This document shows positions 11,829-18,612 of a DNA stretch of 64,000 bases, piece by piece. The stretch's first letter is position 1; the number at the start of each line of letters is the position of its first letter. The stretch lies in assembly GCA_019057385.1 (NCBI GenBank), contig JAHQJS010000004.1, forward strand, positions 916,727 to 980,726, read 5' to 3'. This DNA comes from Candidatus Borrarchaeum weybense (GTDB lineage Archaea; Asgardarchaeota; Sifarchaeia; Borrarchaeales; Borrarchaeaceae). The notes under the pieces were generated by a model. That model was not told the DNA's origin. It worked only from the letters and a program-made list of their open reading frames with translations, and searched no databases. The position numbers were made by a program, and so were the translations under genes.

Positions 11829-13802
11829 TTGAATATGTTTAAATTATCTACAGATCTTGAACCAAAAGGAGATCAGCCAAAAGTTATTCAACAACTTGTA
11901 GATGGTATACAAAAAAGAGAACTAAAACATCAGACATTACTAGGAGTAACTGGTTCCGGAAAAACATTCGCTATGGCTCAGATTATCGAAAAGACGCAAA
12001 AACCAACGCTCGTTATCAGCCACAATAAGACATTAGCTGCACAGTTGTATTCTGAATTCAAGGCATTTTTTCCAGAAAATGCAGTGGAATATTTTGTTAG
12101 TTATTATGATTATTATCAGCCAGAAGCCTATATGCCTCAAACTGACACTTATGTAGCAAAAGATGCGTCAATAAACGAACGCATAGAAAAGATGCGCTTA
12201 TCTGCAACGAGTTCTTTACTCGAACGGCAAGATGTCGTAGTCGTAGCCAGCGTCTCATGTATTTATTCTATTGGTGATCCTCAAGACACTACAGGTCTTA
12301 CGCTCTATCTCAAAGCAGGTGAAAAAAGGGATCGTGACAGCGTTTTGAAATCTTTTGTTGACATCCAATATGAACGAAATGATTTGGACTTTGCGAGAGG
12401 CAGATTCAGGGTAAGAGGGGATGTTGTCGAGGTTTTTCCAGCCTATGACGATTCGGCGTTAAGACTCGAATGGTTCGGGGACGAGATTGAGAACATTTCA
12501 GAGATTGACCCGTTGACAGGAAAAACTAAAATGAAAAAACCAGTAGCTGTGATTTACCCGGCAAAACACTTCGTCTTCACTCAATCCCGGATCGATCAGA
12601 CTATTGAATTAATAGAGACAGAACTTGAGGAACGCCTCGCTGAATTGAAAAAAGAAGAAAACCTGTTGTATGCACAAAGGCTTGAACAAAGAACACGTTA
12701 TGATTTGGAAATGATAAAAGAGGTAGGATATTGCTCAGGAATTGAGAACTACTCCCGGTATTTTGACAATCGACAACCTGGTCAAAAACCATATGTATTG
12801 TTGGATTATTTCCCACAAGATTTTCTCATGTTTATAGACGAATCACATGTAACTATACCTCAAGTAAGAGGCATGTATGGCGGAGATTTGTCGAGAAAGA
12901 AAAATCTTGTCAAGTATGGATTCAGATTACCAAGTAGTTTTGACAACAGACCTTTAAGATTTGAAGAATTCGAGCAACATATGGATCGAAGTAGGGTGAT
13001 TTTCGTATCTGCTACACCGGCTACTTATGAACTAAATAATAGTGAACAAATCGCAGAAATGATAGTCCGGCCTACTGGATTGATTGACCCAGAGGTAATT
13101 GTAAAGTCAACCGAAAATCAGATAGATGATCTAATTTCTCTGATAAGACTACAGGCGGAACACAGAGAACGTACATTGGTAACAACATTAACAAAGCGAA
13201 TGGCTGAAGATCTAACTGATTATCTATTGAACGTCGGGCTCAGGGTACGATATCTTCACAGTGACATTGAAACGCTAGAACGCGTGGAAATTTTGAGAGA
13301 TCTGCGTCTAGGGAAGTTTGATACACTTATTGGCATCAACTTACTGCGAGAAGGGTTAGATCTTCCCGAAGTCTCCCTCGTCGCCATTCTCGATGCTGAT
13401 AAAGAGGGTTTCTTACGTTCTGAAACAAGTCTAATTCAAACAATTGGGCGAGCCTCCAGAAACGTGAGTGGGCGCGTTATTCTTTATGCAGACGAGATTA
13501 CTGAATCAATGAGAAGAGCACTCGATGAAACCGAAAGAAGACGCCTTCTACAGCTAAAATATAATGAAGAACATGGAATTACACCCGTAACGATCTCTAA
13601 AGGAATTAGAGCTCCAATATCCGAAACGACTAAAACAGAGATTGAATTAGATTCTATATTGTCTGAATCTCCTGAAGATCTCAAATTTCAACTCTCACAA
13701 CTCGAAACTGAAATGAAAAACGCTGCAGATAACCTCGAATTTGAGAAGGCTGCAGTTATCCGTGACAAAATATTTGAATTGAGAAAGCTTTTAATTCCGT
13801 GA
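11829..13802 (+). CDS. uvrB: Excinuclease ABC subunit UvrB
   Basis: [40 protein letters not shown]-terminal UVR LEFEKAA. Confidence 0.98.
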
Positions 13803-13803
13803 T

Positions 13804-14538
13804 CTAACTCTCAACCTCTATTATCTGGAATATATCTTCTGGGAGCTCTAATCTTTCAATTTCCCCCCATCGATTAACCATCTCAATGCCTAATTTTCTT
13901 GATGTTTCGAGAGCTTCGATCTTATTAACTCGGTAAAAACCAGTTTTGACGTGATCAAAGAATGTCTGATATATCTTTTTCAAATCACTTTTCTTGATCT
14001 CTTGAAGGTCTTCATCTTGAAAAGTAGTAGCAATTAGACTATTTGTCTTATCCAAAAACACAAATTTCTCATATATTGGATCCACATTTCTTAAGTTATG
14101 CAAAATCTTGCTCAAGATAGGATTAACTCTTTTGCTCGCTAAAAACGTAATTAATGTTGAATTCACTCTTTTATTTGCTGGAATATTTCTCGTCTTAAAA
14201 TGGAAGATATATTCGTTAATGAGCTGCTCGTAGAATAGTTTAATGTCCTTTTTCAACTTTAGCTCTTCCACAAAACCCGACTTTTTCCCCTTTGTTTTAA
14301 ATTCTATTGAAATGCCATCCGTAAAAATTACTTTTGAGCCTTCCGTTCCTCTATGGGCAAGATCCTCATCAAAATAAGAAAGTACTGCGTGAATTTCTTT
14401 ATTATCAGCACTCCTATGAAGGAATATTCCGGAATATAGATCGCTACTCTTGCGTAGAAGTTGTTCTTTCCTAAAGCAATATGTAATGTTTTTCTTACAT
14501 ACCTCACAATAATCAATGAATGCATGTTCCTTAGACAT
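13804..14538 (-). CDS. Uncharacterised GTPase-partner protein, copy B (N-terminal CxxC...H...H domain)
   Basis: Paralog of 15372-16052; start overlaps GTPase stop; YCEVC, LYSGIFLH, EIHA..YFD..LA.RG.EG. Confidence 0.75.
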   Translation of the reverse strand: MSKEHAFIDYCEVCKKNITYCFRKEQLLRKSSDLYSGIFLHRSADNKEIHAVLSYFDEDLAHRGTEGSKVIFTDGISIEFKTKGKKSGFVEELKLKKDIKLFYEQLINEYIFHFKTRNIPANKRVNSTLITFLASKRVNPILSKILHNLRNVDPIYEKFVFLDKTNSLIATTFQDEDLQEIKKSDLKKIYQTFFDHVKTGFYRVNKIEALETSRKLGIEMVNRWGEIERLELPEDIFQIIEVES

Positions 14539-15100
14539 TTAGTTGTATCACCCTAGCGTAAAGTAAATCAGAAAGAGCAGCAAAAACGTTCTCTATATTT
14601 TCACCAGTTAGCGAACTTGTTTTAAAAAAAATCTCTGCTGACAATTCATTTTTTTTCAAAAATTCTTTGATTTTTGCATCAGTTACCGCCTCTTTGCCAG
14701 CTTTCCCAAGTTTATCCGCCTTTGTGCCAATCACTAAAACTATTGGATTCCCAGCGGTGTTCTTATAGACTAAATCAAACCAATCACTTAAATTGAGCAA
14801 ACTAGATGATCGTGTAAGATCAAAGGCAAATATGACCGCATGAGCCCCTTGGCAATAACTAGGTAAGATGAACCGAAACCTTTTTTCCCCACCAAAATCC
14901 CATACCTGAAGTTTAATGATGATATCTGCATCTACATCTACTTTATTATGGAAAGAATAAAATCCTGCGCCGATCGTGATTTTTGTATCTTTGGCAAACT
15001 TGTTTGTTGCATATCTATTTATGAAAGTCGTTTTCCCGACACCACCTTCCCCTACAACGATCACCTTGAAGATATAACTTGATTTTGGCGGTTCCATCAC
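14531..15100 (-). CDS. Rab/Ras-like small GTPase, copy B
   Basis: G1 GEGGVGKT, G2 TIG, G3 WDFGGE, G4 TKAD, G5 TSS.TG. Confidence 0.93.
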   Translation of the reverse strand: MMEPPKSSYIFKVIVVGEGGVGKTTFINRYATNKFAKDTKITIGAGFYSFHNKVDVDADIIIKLQVWDFGGEKRFRFILPSYCQGAHAVIFAFDLTRSSSLLNLSDWFDLVYKNTAGNPIVLVIGTKADKLGKAGKEAVTDAKIKEFLKKNELSAEIFFKTSSLTGENIENVFAALSDLLYARVIQLNV

Positions 15101-15371
15101 AAATCGACCATTTTAATACTTAGTAAAATCACTTCACTTTGATACTAGAATATTTGGATAATTTCAAATCTCGTTTTCAACCTTTTTATTAATTCTGGGA
15201 ATTTTTTCAGCAAGTTTGAGAGCATCTTCGAAACTCTCCACTAGCTATTAAAATGATAGAATTAGAGACGTTTTTATTCATGGAAAGCATTTAAGGGCAT
15301 TAATTAAAAAACAAGAATAACAAAAAATAGGATCTCTGGAAGTGTTAGGTGCAAAACCTACAATACTGCAA

Positions 15372-16052
15372 CTAATGAGTAGCTAAGATCTGCAGGACGT
15401 CTTCAGAGAGTCCTAATTTTACAATTTCTCTCCATTGTGTAATGACTTTGAGCCCAGTTTTCCTTGATGCATCAAGAGCATCATTCTCGTTTTCATCCTT
15501 AAAATATTCAATAATCTGCTCAAAGACAGTCTGAAAAGCTTCTTTGAGTTCGTCATAAGTGATTTGACTGATGTCCCTTTTTTGCAAATCGAACGTAATC
15601 TTGTCAGAAACTGTCATAAACGGTTCGTATAATTCAGATTGAGTTTTTAAATCGGCTAAAATTTTATTTAGTGTAGGTTCCACTTTTCTTTTTACTAATA
15701 ACCTCTTATTTTTAAAACTGGAAATATATTCATTAATTAACCATTCGTAAAAGAGTTTGCTTTCTAGTTTATTTACTTCTTCATCTAGATGTTTCTTTTC
15801 GTTCTTTTTCAGATGTTCTAGTGAAACACCATTCGTTAGAATTACTTTTGCCCCCTCTCCTCCTCTATTAGCAAGATTAGTATCGAAGTAAGCAAGCATT
15901 GCATGAATTTCATTATTACTTTTACTTTTGTGAAGAAATACTCCCGAGTATAGACCGCCACCTTTTTGTTCTAGCATTTCCTTTGTAAAATGATGTGTAA
16001 CTGAAGTACCACATTTCTCACAGTACTCAATAAAAGTATAATCGTCAGCCAT
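15372..16052 (-). CDS. Uncharacterised GTPase-partner protein, copy A (N-terminal CxxC...H...H domain)
   Basis: TAATG overlap with GTPase at 16052; YCEKC, LYSGVFLH, EIHA..YFD..LA.RG.EG. Confidence 0.75.
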   Translation of the reverse strand: MADDYTFIEYCEKCGTSVTHHFTKEMLEQKGGGLYSGVFLHKSKSNNEIHAMLAYFDTNLANRGGEGAKVILTNGVSLEHLKKNEKKHLDEEVNKLESKLFYEWLINEYISSFKNKRLLVKRKVEPTLNKILADLKTQSELYEPFMTVSDKITFDLQKRDISQITYDELKEAFQTVFEQIIEYFKDENENDALDASRKTGLKVITQWREIVKLGLSEDVLQILATH

Positions 16053-16612
16053 TATTGTTTCACCTTGTTGTAGAGTAAATTAGACATTTCGGCAAATACG
16101 TCTTTGACATTTTGCCCTGTTTTCGAACTTGTCTTAAAAAACAAATTTGGTGAAACTTCGTATGTTTTCATGAATTCGACAATTTGTTCATCTTTGATTG
16201 CTTCAAAACCGTTGTCTTCGATTTGATCAGCTTTTGTACCAATGAGGATAAATATCGGGCTATTCTCAGTATTCTCAGTAATTAAATCAAACCATTCACT
16301 CAGATTCCATAAAGTAGTTGCTCTAGTAAGATCAAAAGCAAATATGACCCCGTGAGCCCCGTTGCAATAACTAGGCAGAATAAAGCGGAAACGCTTCTCG
16401 CCACCGAAATCCCACACCTGAAGCTTTACGGAAGTATCTCCATTTACATTATTTTCAAAGGAATGAAAAGAGGCACCAATTGTAATTTTCGTATCTTCAG
16501 AAAAACTGTTTGTAGCATATCGGTTAATGAACGTCGTTTTCCCGACGCCACCTTCTCCAACAACGATGCATTTGAATAAATAGCTATAGCTCATCTGATT
16601 CTTAGCCACCAA
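16052..16612 (-). CDS. Rab/Ras-like small GTPase, copy A
   Basis: YLFKCIVVGEGGVGKT, TIG, LQVWDFGGEKRFR, GTKAD, TSSKTG. Confidence 0.93.
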   Translation of the reverse strand: MVAKNQMSYSYLFKCIVVGEGGVGKTTFINRYATNSFSEDTKITIGASFHSFENNVNGDTSVKLQVWDFGGEKRFRFILPSYCNGAHGVIFAFDLTRATTLWNLSEWFDLITENTENSPIFILIGTKADQIEDNGFEAIKDEQIVEFMKTYEVSPNLFFKTSSKTGQNVKDVFAEMSNLLYNKVKQ

Positions 16613-16868
16613 TTTAAATCACCCCATTATGCGCAGTAAACTCGATCGTATAATTTAAAAAACAATACTTTCTGTTCCTTTTAAACCTTCAGGTAAAGTT
16701 CTCCGCAAAATGCTTTATCGTTTTTGTCGAGAAGGAGAGTTCAGTATTCAATAAATTCTCCGCAATGGTTGCTTCTAAAAGGCATTTCGAAGTTGTTCAT
16801 GTCCCAATTTGAAAAGAAGTAATTTTTAACTAAATTACTGAGTAATCTTGAGTTGATTCATAAAACTA

Positions 16869-17807
16869 CTAGTTTAGAATTATTTGATCTGCTTCTTGTA
16901 AAAATTCGTTGGCCTTTTCTTCATCGCCTTGTGCCATATACAGGTCACCAAGTTTTTTTAACGTTTCTTTTTTTCCAGCAGAATCTTTTTTTTCGTCACT
17001 TAAACTAAGAGATTCATTATAATGTTTCAGCGCTTGCTCCCAGTTTTCTTTCTTATGATAAACAAGTCCTATGTATCGAAGCCTAGAAGCTTTTCCTCTC
17101 ATATCATTGAAATTTTCATCCATTTCAAGCGCTTGTTGATAATATTCAAGTGCTTCATCGTATCTTTCATTCTTATAATGAACAACAGCTAAATTATTAA
17201 TCATATTTCTCGCGTCACGTCTACGTCCCATGATATTAAGAAGTTCAACTGATTTTTCAAAAAATTTAATTGTTCTTGGGTCATCTTTTGCTAAATGCTC
17301 ATAACATACACTAGTTAATTTATCTAGAAGTTTTGCAGTATCATCAAAGGGTGCACTTGCCCGTACCATCAAATAGTAAAGCTCTTCAAATGTATTCACA
17401 GCGTCATTATATTTTTTTTGATCACAATAGATATCGCCGATCATTTTCATAATTAAAACTCTAATGCGCATATCTCCTGTCTTTCCTTTCTCATTATCTA
17501 ACTTTAGTGCTTCATTCAAATATTCCAGTGCGCGATCCGTCTCTTTGAGTTCCTGATGAACATTTCCTAAATGTAGCAATGCAACTATTTTTCCCTCTCT
17601 AGTATCTGCATATTTGCTCTCTTCGAAGTCATCTGAAGTCAAAATGCCCTGAATTATTTCATATGCGTTTTGAAAGTGATTTAACGCTTCTTCCAAATCT
17701 TGAGATTTCTGCGCTTTGATACCTTTCTTTAAAAGTTTCTTACTCTCATGTAACTGTTTATCTATTCTTTTTACTATTTTTCTGTCTGGTTTCTTGTCCT
17801 TAGTCAT
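16869..17807 (-). CDS. Tetratricopeptide repeat protein
   Basis: Repeated LG..Y....Y..AL.YY..AL TPR units. Confidence 0.9.
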   Translation of the reverse strand: MTKDKKPDRKIVKRIDKQLHESKKLLKKGIKAQKSQDLEEALNHFQNAYEIIQGILTSDDFEESKYADTREGKIVALLHLGNVHQELKETDRALEYLNEALKLDNEKGKTGDMRIRVLIMKMIGDIYCDQKKYNDAVNTFEELYYLMVRASAPFDDTAKLLDKLTSVCYEHLAKDDPRTIKFFEKSVELLNIMGRRRDARNMINNLAVVHYKNERYDEALEYYQQALEMDENFNDMRGKASRLRYIGLVYHKKENWEQALKHYNESLSLSDEKKDSAGKKETLKKLGDLYMAQGDEEKANEFLQEADQIILN

Positions 17808-17829
17808 GCTTTCAAGAACTCCTATTGTT

Positions 17830-18612
17830 TTAGTCTTCTATTGATACTTCCAGAATCCCAATGCCATCAATTTGAGCAACAAGCCTATCTCCGCTTTTTA
17901 CAGTATCAATTCCAGCAGGTGTTCCAGTGGCAATTATGTCTCCTGGGTAAAGCGTCACGATTTTTGTAATGAAGGAAATTAGTTTGGGTATTTTAAAAAT
18001 CATTGAAGCTGTATTGTCACTCTGCTTTAATTCGCCATTGTGCCATAGTTTGATATCAAGTGCGTGAGGATCAGGTATTTCATCAGTAGTAACGATATAT
18101 GGGCCAAGTGGACCAAACGTATCGAATCCCTTCACCTTAAATAATGCCCTATCTGTTTCTGTGAAATCTCGGGCAGACATATCAAGAATAATAGTATAGC
18201 CAAAAACCTTTGAAAACACTTCGCTTTCATCGACATTTTTTGCCTTTTCCCCGATCACAACAGCTAATTCTGTCTCGTAATCAACCCTATTGACCTCTTT
18301 TGGAATTTTGACTGCTTGGTTTGGTCCAATAATTGTAGAAGGAGGTTTTAACCAGCAAAAAGGTTCAGAAGGCGTTTGTTTCCCCAATTCGGCTATGTGA
18401 GAAGGGTAGTTTAATCCGATTCCTATAATTTTCGAAGGGTTTCTTATTGGTGCATCAAATTTTGCTTCGCTTAGTGAAATAATGTCACCCGAAAAAGATA
18501 ACCGATCAGGAGGATTTTGAATGAACTCTTCGACTAATTGGAAACCTTTCAAAAACCTGATTTGATATCCTTCAATAATGCCGACTTTCCCTTCAACACA
18601 ACAAATCTTCAT
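17830..18612 (-). CDS. Fumarylacetoacetate hydrolase family protein
   Basis: KIIGIGLNY..H, DYETEL, KGFDTFGPLGP, GDIIATGTPAG. Confidence 0.93.
   Translation of the reverse strand: MKICCVEGKVGIIEGYQIRFLKGFQLVEEFIQNPPDRLSFSGDIISLSEAKFDAPIRNPSKIIGIGLNYPSHIAELGKQTPSEPFCWLKPPSTIIGPNQAVKIPKEVNRVDYETELAVVIGEKAKNVDESEVFSKVFGYTIILDMSARDFTETDRALFKVKGFDTFGPLGPYIVTTDEIPDPHALDIKLWHNGELKQSDNTASMIFKIPKLISFITKIVTLYPGDIIATGTPAGIDTVKSGDRLVAQIDGIGILEVSIED

Follow-up and report, generated by a model that had tools for sequence, protein, structure and literature searches.

Two adjacent, co-duplicated pairs of a Rab-like small GTPase and an undescribed partner protein in Candidatus Borrarchaeum weybense

Which protein serves a given small GTPase in an archaeon that has many of them? 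Asgard archaea encode dozens of small GTPases, though canonical Rab regulators are undetectable in them (PMC4915359). The question is raised by a stretch of 64,000 nucleotides from Candidatus Borrarchaeum weybense (assembly GCA_019057385.1, contig JAHQJS010000004.1, positions 916,727 to 980,726 of the forward strand), referred to here as the window. An initial annotation, made from the letters alone, had marked in it two small GTPase genes, each followed by the gene of a candidate partner protein, behind a TPR gene. Five minus-strand open reading frames (ORFs) were found at its coordinates, in the order TPR, GTPase A, partner A, GTPase B and partner B (Table 1). The two adjacent copies of a two-gene unit, GTPase followed by partner, are confirmed as real and conserved.

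The junctions show translational coupling of GTPase and partner in each pair, on the reading of stop, start and ribosome-binding positions, and here the initial annotation was borne out. In the A junction, caaTAATGgct, the stop TAA of GTPase A (16054-16052) and the ATG of partner A (16052-16050) have one base in common, giving the TAATG at 16052; in the B junction the ATG of partner B at 14538 and the stop of GTPase B ending at 14531 form an 8-nt overlap (14531-14538). In both pairs GGTGA precedes the partner ATG within the closing (K/R)-V codons of the GTPase. In pair B, and in a paralogous pair C elsewhere in the genome, this Shine-Dalgarno sequence reads AGGGTGA and is placed as in pair A. 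The stop-start arrangement with its upstream GGTGA is the same in pair C and similar in a fourth pair, D, and in a pair from another genus (g30), so that coupling across the five takes the form of a TAATG overlap, an 8-nt overlap or a 10-nt gap. Pairs A and B look like separate transcription units, because partner A is followed by a T-rich stretch, a candidate archaeal terminator, and by a gap of 271 nt before GTPase B. No RNA runs were found in the search, only sediment DNA metagenomes containing the stretch, and Rfam gave no RNA family within 13500-18000.

The two GTPases are 66% identical and match Pfam Ras PF00071 (6e-34 and 8e-32); Roc was also matched. GTPase A, for which the database cluster has the 180-amino-acid (aa) form, presents the motifs GEGGVGKT (G1), WDFGGE (G3), TKAD (G4) and SSK (G5), and GTPase B has the same WDFGGE and TKAD. 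The G1-G5 elements of the Ras superfamily, that is, GxxxxGKT, the switch I Thr, DxxG, xKxD and SSK, are all kept in the GTPase alignment. The best match among solved structures was Rab14 (E 1.5e-31), aligned end to end including the RFR motif of switch II, and Rab35 and Rab11 were other leading matches. Two features of the Rab family are missing: the Glu of WDFGGE lies opposite Gln70 of Rab14, the catalytic Gln of the family motif WDTAGQE, and the chains end in ...NKVKQ and ...RVIQLNV, with no C-terminal Cys for prenylation. WDFGGE, TKAD and the missing Cys had all been read in the translations by the initial annotation. Judged by their sequences, GTPases A and B are Ras/Rab-like small GTPases. 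In the genome surveyed (4.18 Mb, 8 contigs) there are 37 small GTPase ORFs, eight of which carry WDFGGE and form a single clade with 100% support. The substitution of Gln by Glu is found in all partner-linked GTPases and characterises a broader Asgard subfamily, to which sequences with the labels Lokiarchaeota and Hermodarchaeota also belong.

Two observations concern this subfamily apart from the pairs. One WDFGGE GTPase of 468 aa (G000:C3:29997-31403) bears a C-terminal tail of about 270 residues with repeats of the P-P-E-I-P-E-P type. The Lokiarchaeial WDFAGE GTPases (contigs L047-L049) have upstream, on the same strand, a conserved multi-pass membrane protein of 286-287 aa without Pfam family, which is a different conserved neighbour of the same GTPase subfamily.

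The linkage between GTPase and partner was followed across genomes, a survey that had been proposed together with the initial annotation. The genome holds four partner genes (A, B, C and D), each directly 3' of a WDFGGE GTPase, and all 18 partner loci of relatives with upstream sequence have a same-strand WDFGGE GTPase immediately 5'. Considering that this subfamily makes up only 8 of the 37 GTPases, the pairing is beyond chance, and the claim that the partner is dedicated to its GTPase clade held. Among 400 Asgard genomes the full-length partner was confined to two of the 85 genera sampled, that of the window (3 of 4 other genomes) and one other (2 of 6), and beyond these it was met in metagenomes. 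In pair D a GTPase of 181 aa is followed after 10 nt by the partner, and this arrangement is kept in four genomes of the genus.

The trees of GTPases and of partners were compared. They agree one-to-one on clades A, B, C, D and x. Each partner clade has support of 95-100%; among the GTPases it was 99-100% for A, C and x, 94/91 for B and 93/90 for D without G305_D, whose position is unresolved. Since the matching clades hold the same members in both trees, the unit was duplicated whole, in agreement with the co-duplication first suggested. Clades A and B are old, both being kept in G308, in a 27.5-kb JGI contig and in GCA_048940565.1. Partners A to D are under purifying selection: a comparison of two species of the genus gave ratios of nonsynonymous to synonymous substitution (dN/dS) of 0.13-0.33. 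After pair C, two same-strand genes (207-219 aa and 146-162 aa) without Pfam or PDB match keep their order in three genomes of the genus; a guess that they are longin/winged helix-turn-helix (wHTH)-like and V4R/TRAPP-like found no support in Pfam or PDB searches.

What kind of protein is the partner? Partners A and B are 43% identical over the full length (E 2e-61). In the AlphaFold2 (AF2) models of partner A, residues 1-68 form a five-stranded beta domain (the N-domain), residues 69-89 a disordered linker and residues 91-225 a helical domain, which carries a conserved FYEWLINEY helix. The predicted local distance difference test (pLDDT) score was 75.5 for the whole protein and 85.2 for the N-domain alone. 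Partner B has the same two domains, with a 13-residue insertion past the FYE helix. An alignment of 25 members shows no variation at C11, C14, H41, H50, R63 or E66, which upholds the shared N-terminal Cys/His domain described at first, and the sequence pattern is C-x2-C-x26-H-x8-H-x12-R. C11 and C14 are located at the beta1-beta2 turn of the model and H41 and H50 on either side of the beta3-beta4 turn, a layout that would suit one metal site, putatively for zinc.

The initial annotation could not assign the partners to a family, and the searches gave the same outcome. No significant match was obtained in Pfam (E up to 1), NCBIfam, PADLOC or a sequence search of the PDB; a profile search of the PDB gave nothing below E 1.5, and the one PHROGs match was weak (E 0.0056), its family having no known function. 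With no assignment from NCBIfam, PADLOC or PHROGs, an origin in a defence system or a phage is not indicated. A word-indexed search of 5.8 billion proteins returned 23 partner clusters, those with a named source being all Asgard (Sifarchaeia, Hodarchaeales, Promethearchaeota), and a profile search of 1.84 billion representatives returned 14 partner proteins only. The fold searches, carried out as had been proposed, gave no match above noise for either domain. For the whole model, Foldseek found nothing in the PDB at E 0.001 or better, the ESM Atlas gave only hypothetical proteins of Promethearchaeota, all with template-modelling (TM) scores below 0.5, and the best row of a wide VIA-align search (Z 6.6, on the helical domain) was within noise. 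With the N-domain model nothing was found by Foldseek and no VIA-align chain reached Z 5; the top row, within noise, was the zinc beta-sheet (WRKY/GCM1 type) of the AtWRKY1 domain (Z 4.4, root-mean-square deviation 4.0 over 54 residues). Atlas feature searches gave no named cluster.

Named candidates were also compared one by one. The Robl_LC7/longin profiles left the partner unmatched in Pfam at E up to 1, the same model finding 14 roadblock genes elsewhere in the genome; roadblock or longin chains were absent among the rows listed by the Foldseek and VIA-align fold searches, and where roadblock proteins have a sandwich, the AF2 models have a five-strand beta meander without flanking helices and a separate helical domain. 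The initial annotation had likewise recognised no roadblock or longin protein here. Its premise of a usual link between Asgard small GTPases and such proteins failed in this genome, where a roadblock gene lies within 2 kb of just 2 of the 37 GTPases. ArfGap gave no Pfam match and its CxxC-x16-CxxC-x4-R pattern is not present, and the DUF2073 and DUF2072 families of ArvB and ArvC were not matched in the Pfam scan. No fusion of GTPase and partner was found among 8000 longer-protein candidates, no paper describing the family was found in the literature, and no eukaryotic counterpart was visible. The partner is an undescribed, Asgard-only, two-domain family without clear structural match.

The beta domain by itself reaches further. 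By profile-profile comparison (hhalign) it belongs to a wider Asgard-only superfamily, being related to proteins of 270-290 aa in Thor-like and Loki-like genomes (probability 96.8%) and to small proteins of the Borrarchaeum genome with the pattern CxxC...DHGDH...VRRE (97.2%). The Thor proteins have only the N-domain in common with the partner and not the helical domain. In 29 diverse N-domain sequences C11, C14 and H41 are invariant and H50 is present in most; the His-His spacing is 2, 4 or 8 depending on the subfamily, with the Cys2His2 set retained. The domain occurs alone or with C-terminal parts that are helical, ubiquitin-like, wHTH-like or a 724-aa coiled coil. Five of the eight WDFGGE GTPases of the genome have an N-domain neighbour, the fifth being preceded by a distant 268-aa N-domain protein, an arrangement (C6:731336-733325) kept in GCA_048940565.1. 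In Thor-like lineages of four genera, N-domain members adjoin a small GTPase or stand one seven-transmembrane (7TM) gene away from it.

Several members of the superfamily have features of their own. The distant protein of 265-268 aa (region C6:728000-736000) joins a CxxC...DHGTH N-domain to two repeats with weak FUR/PadR winged-helix matches, and in two genomes it lies on the same strand, 330-650 nt 5' of the WDFGGE GTPase. A trio recurs in contigs L026, L030 and L032, made of a small GTPase (confirmed in L026 only), a seven-helix membrane protein of 231-232 aa with a weak HisKA_7TM match and an N-domain protein of 281-284 aa. The small family of the genome (64-150 aa, plus one coiled-coil protein of 724 aa), with the pattern C-x2-C ... 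GGLF.K.LDHGDH ... VRRE, has no Pfam family and is not beside GTPases. In the Thor-like genus g78 the N-domain proteins of 270-285 aa stand consistently after msrA (peptide methionine sulfoxide reductase) on the same strand, and a redox link of the Cys/His domain is conceivable from this neighbourhood; ORFs of about 176 aa 5' of the Thor proteins, taken by their size for GTPases, proved to be MsrA.

Taking into account the coupled and invariant arrangement of the genes, their joint duplication and the purifying selection on the partners, we propose that each pair is a two-gene operon in which a Rab-like GTPase and its own binding partner would be made in near-equal amounts. The N-terminal beta domain, in which C-x2-C...H...H probably binds a single zinc, would dock on the GTPase, and the family-specific helical C-terminal domain would relay the state of the GTPase to a target, the partner being an effector or adaptor. 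On balance we lean towards direct binding of each GTPase by its cognate partner. What the partner does once bound can be said with less assurance: an effector or adaptor role is put forward tentatively, and it is slightly ahead of the regulation of the nucleotide cycle, which we regard as somewhat doubtful. The N-domain looks like the GTPase-linked part of the protein on three grounds. The D-type partner consists of nothing but the N-domain (111 aa), and its coupling is kept in four genomes; the distant 268-aa protein stands 5' of the fifth WDFGGE GTPase; and the Thor-like N-domain proteins adjoin other small GTPases in four genera. The occurrence of the N-domain with varied C-terminal parts is what one would expect if a common docking domain served different outputs. 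A complex prediction of GTPase A and partner A with GTP and Mg (score 0.14, mark 0.32) was used neither for nor against binding.

Several points weigh against this proposal. Contact between GTPase and partner is a prediction from gene arrangement. R63 and D57 are nearly invariant throughout the superfamily, and a catalytic role, for example that of an arginine finger, would explain this no less well than docking. Many N-domain proteins stand apart from GTPases, among them the small stand-alone copies of the genome and the Thor proteins of 270-290 aa that follow msrA, and a partner of this kind is missing from the Lokiarchaeial GTPases that share the Glu substitution. GTPase A is intact in GCA_048940565.1 and in a matching Logan contig, but partner A is a remnant there, a pseudogene with residues about 23-165 deleted and the frame broken; considering that GTPase A survives this decay, the partner is dispensable or replaceable. 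An independent in-frame deletion between two KDM repeats, covering nearly the stretch lost from the decayed partner A, has given a 91-aa protein (P0028), and the segment at about 23-165 may perhaps be prone to recurrent microhomology deletion.

The initial annotation had also suggested that co-duplication gave two insulated switches. Strict one-to-one insulation is unproven and somewhat doubtful, given that switches I and II of GTPases A and B are near-identical, that a motif is common to both promoters and that partner A has decayed in one lineage with GTPase A intact. The same facts would suit a reading of the tandem pairs as redundant recent copies without functional differentiation. We consider this possible but rather doubtful, because both clades are old and are retained in all three relatives and the partners, at 43% identity, are under purifying selection.

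If the partner is a regulator, the leading option is a GTPase-activating protein (GAP), given the Glu substitution and the invariant Arg63. In this reading a dedicated GAP would supply catalytic residues in trans, for example Arg63, to the Glu-bearing switch II. The catalytic Gln is replaced by Glu in every partner-linked GTPase, Arg63 and Asp57 vary little or not at all across the N-domain superfamily, and one-to-one operons of GTPase and GAP exist, MglA-MglB being an example. A zinc finger followed by an arginine finger is the design of the ArfGAP domain, a parallel cited in PMC10927574. We nevertheless hold it to be unlikely: no similarity in fold or sequence to any GAP family was found, the distant GTPases adjoining N-domain proteins retain Gln, the Lokiarchaeial Glu-bearing GTPases do without the partner, and translational coupling suggests equimolar rather than catalytic amounts.

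It is likewise improbable that GTPase and partner act in one pathway without mutual binding; the zinc beta domain could, for instance, bind nucleic acid or another common target, the GTPase being a separate, co-expressed component. Most members of the superfamily are away from GTPases, the top structural row, a weak one (Z 4.4), is the WRKY zinc beta-sheet, which binds DNA, and one paralogue has wHTH-like repeats. Strict gene order, overlapping genes and matched duplication at 43% partner identity are, however, more typical of interacting proteins, and the linkage recurs in independent N-domain subfamilies. Very unlikely, finally, is a nucleotide-exchange factor, an Mss4-like chaperone or a GDI-like holder of the nucleotide-free or GDP form: the probable zinc-binding, beta-rich domain resembles Mss4 (a resemblance only) and equimolar co-expression would suit a chaperone or holder, but the Mss4 precedent invoked at first has no support from sequence or fold, with no Mss4 match in Pfam at E up to 1, no Mss4 among the Foldseek and VIA-align rows listed for either partner model, no significant PDB fold match of either model, and a C-x2-C-x26-H-x8-H spacing unlike the two CxxC knuckles of the Mss4 metal site.

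The promoters of the two pairs were also compared. Both carry GYGGAGARTTT about 12 nt 5' of a TATA-like box, with a longer consensus TGCGGAGArTTTTACTA; in pair A the second copy of GCGGAGAAYTT stands 10-12 nt 5' of TTTAAAAGG. The genome contains 24 exact matches to GYGGAGARTTT, where base composition would predict about 8; 14 of the 24 are intergenic. Seven intergenic sites lie 115-260 nt 5' of a small GTPase gene or of an operon whose last gene is a GTPase (Table 1), and G308 and GCA_048940565.1 have kept the motif at orthologous promoters. We regard it as a candidate operator of a GTPase/signalling regulon. Further sites were seen 5' of a PAS histidine kinase, a 1580-aa PKD protein, a weakly gelsolin-like protein and a double zinc-ribbon protein.

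The TPR gene is in the position described by the initial annotation, but it does not belong to the module. Its adjacency to GTPase A is not conserved, two to four opposite-strand genes lying between them in G308, the JGI contig and GCA_048940565.1, where it keeps company with a FAA-hydrolase gene, and the g30 pair has no TPR neighbour. From this separation in three relatives and absence in the other genus, the TPR gene is a syntenic neighbour and not a component. A TnpB-like gene (Cas12f1-like_TNB, L039:4756-5454) is inserted just 5' of GTPase A in GCA_048940565.1, at this variable junction of TPR gene and module.

Table 1. Coordinates of the genes, signals and related loci (plain numbers are positions in the window).
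Feature	Coordinates	Strand	Basis
TPR protein, 312 aa	16869..17807	-	Pfam TPR_12 4.9e-34
Pair A promoter region: GCGGAGAAYTT x2 (16763-16753, 16706-16696), TATA-like TTTAAAAGG (16685-16677)	16677..16763	-	
GTPase A, 186 aa from TTG 3' of GGTGAT Shine-Dalgarno, or 180 aa from ATG at 16594	16052..16612	-	Pfam Ras, PDB match Rab14
Shine-Dalgarno GGTGA of partner A, within final K-V codons of GTPase A, 7 nt 5' of ATG	16060..16064	-	sequence read
Partner A, 226 aa	15372..16052	-	ORF, AF2 models, alignment
T-rich stretch (TTTTTT ... TTTTTT), 45-65 nt past partner A stop, candidate archaeal terminator	15306..15327	-	sequence read, role inferred
Pair B promoter region: GTGGAGAGTTT (15241-15231), degenerate second copy GCTGAAAAAATT (15211-15200), TATA-like TTAATAAAAAGG (15192-15181)	15181..15241	-	
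GTPase B, 189 aa, GTG at 15100 or ATG at 15097	14531..15100	-	ORF, Pfam
Partner B, 244 aa	13804..14538	-	ORF, alignment with partner A
Partner C, 239 aa, after GTPase C (182 aa), TAATG overlap	C7:353077-353796 (locus C7:351610-355296)		
Partner D, N-domain alone with basic tail, 91 aa from ATG or 111 aa from upstream TTG	C4:855.6 kb (locus C4:854170-857421)		
CxxC...DHGDH...VRRE proteins	C4:108132, C4:175876, C8:126125, C7:27354, C7:369177, C5:226671		
Motif-bearing GTPase sites	A, B, C6:851583, C4:647243, C7:726115, C7:727799, C7:185217>188556		

The unit names a candidate dedicated partner for archaeal GTPases otherwise without one, and the four paralogous pairs of a single genome are ready material for work on binding, specificity and nucleotide cycling. 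We suggest, with due reserve, that the CxxC...H...H beta domain may be a new module for the recognition of GTPases, specific to Asgard archaea and corresponding in prokaryotes to effector domains of the RBD/CRIB type or to the ArfGAP finger, and that with the GCGGAGARTTT element it may mark a co-regulated GTPase network. If this is true, the partners of the window would be the first dedicated regulators or effectors matched by genome layout to individual Asgard Rab-like GTPases, and together with the shared promoter element they would define that network.

Among known systems the nearest in design is MglA-MglB of bacteria and some archaea, a one-to-one operon of a GTPase and its roadblock-fold GAP. 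In both, neighbouring prokaryotic genes encode a small GTPase of the Ras superfamily and a small protein dedicated to it. The partner described here, however, lacks the roadblock/LC7 signature and is modelled as a beta meander with a helical domain instead of an alpha-beta-alpha sandwich; the GTPase gene comes first, and a GAP role of the partner is a candidate one. With Mss4/Dss4, a zinc-binding Rab chaperone or weak exchange factor, it shares a beta-rich, probably zinc-binding protein tied to a Rab-like GTPase, but its ligands are Cys2His2 with other spacing, it has an extra helical domain, and the searches gave no match in sequence or fold. The likeness to ArfGAP is that an invariant arginine comes after a metal-binding motif and that the protein is associated with a small GTPase; the two patterns differ (C-x2-C-x26-H-x8-H-x12-R as against CxxC-x16-CxxC-x4-R), and neither Pfam nor structure searches gave an ArfGap match. 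Compared with eukaryotic Rabs, GTPases A and B align to Rab14 along the full length and differ in having Glu for Gln and TKxD for NKxD and in lacking both the prenylation Cys and a hypervariable tail. The ArvA-ArvB-ArvC/Arco system of Haloferax is also an archaeal Ras-superfamily GTPase in an operon with small co-working proteins, ArvC being a protein of zinc-ribbon type, DUF2072 (PMC10927574; bioRxiv 10.64898/2026.07.23.738820); here there are two genes and not three, the GTPase is Rab-like, the partner matches neither DUF2072 nor DUF2073, and the system is Asgard-restricted. In strain MK-D1 the GTPase genes are generally not in operons with roadblock or longin genes (Tran et al. 2024, PMC10933270), and genome layout is said not to reveal which regulator serves which GTPase (PMC10933270). 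In the locus described here the layout does pair them, joining one GTPase clade to a strictly coupled, co-duplicated candidate partner.

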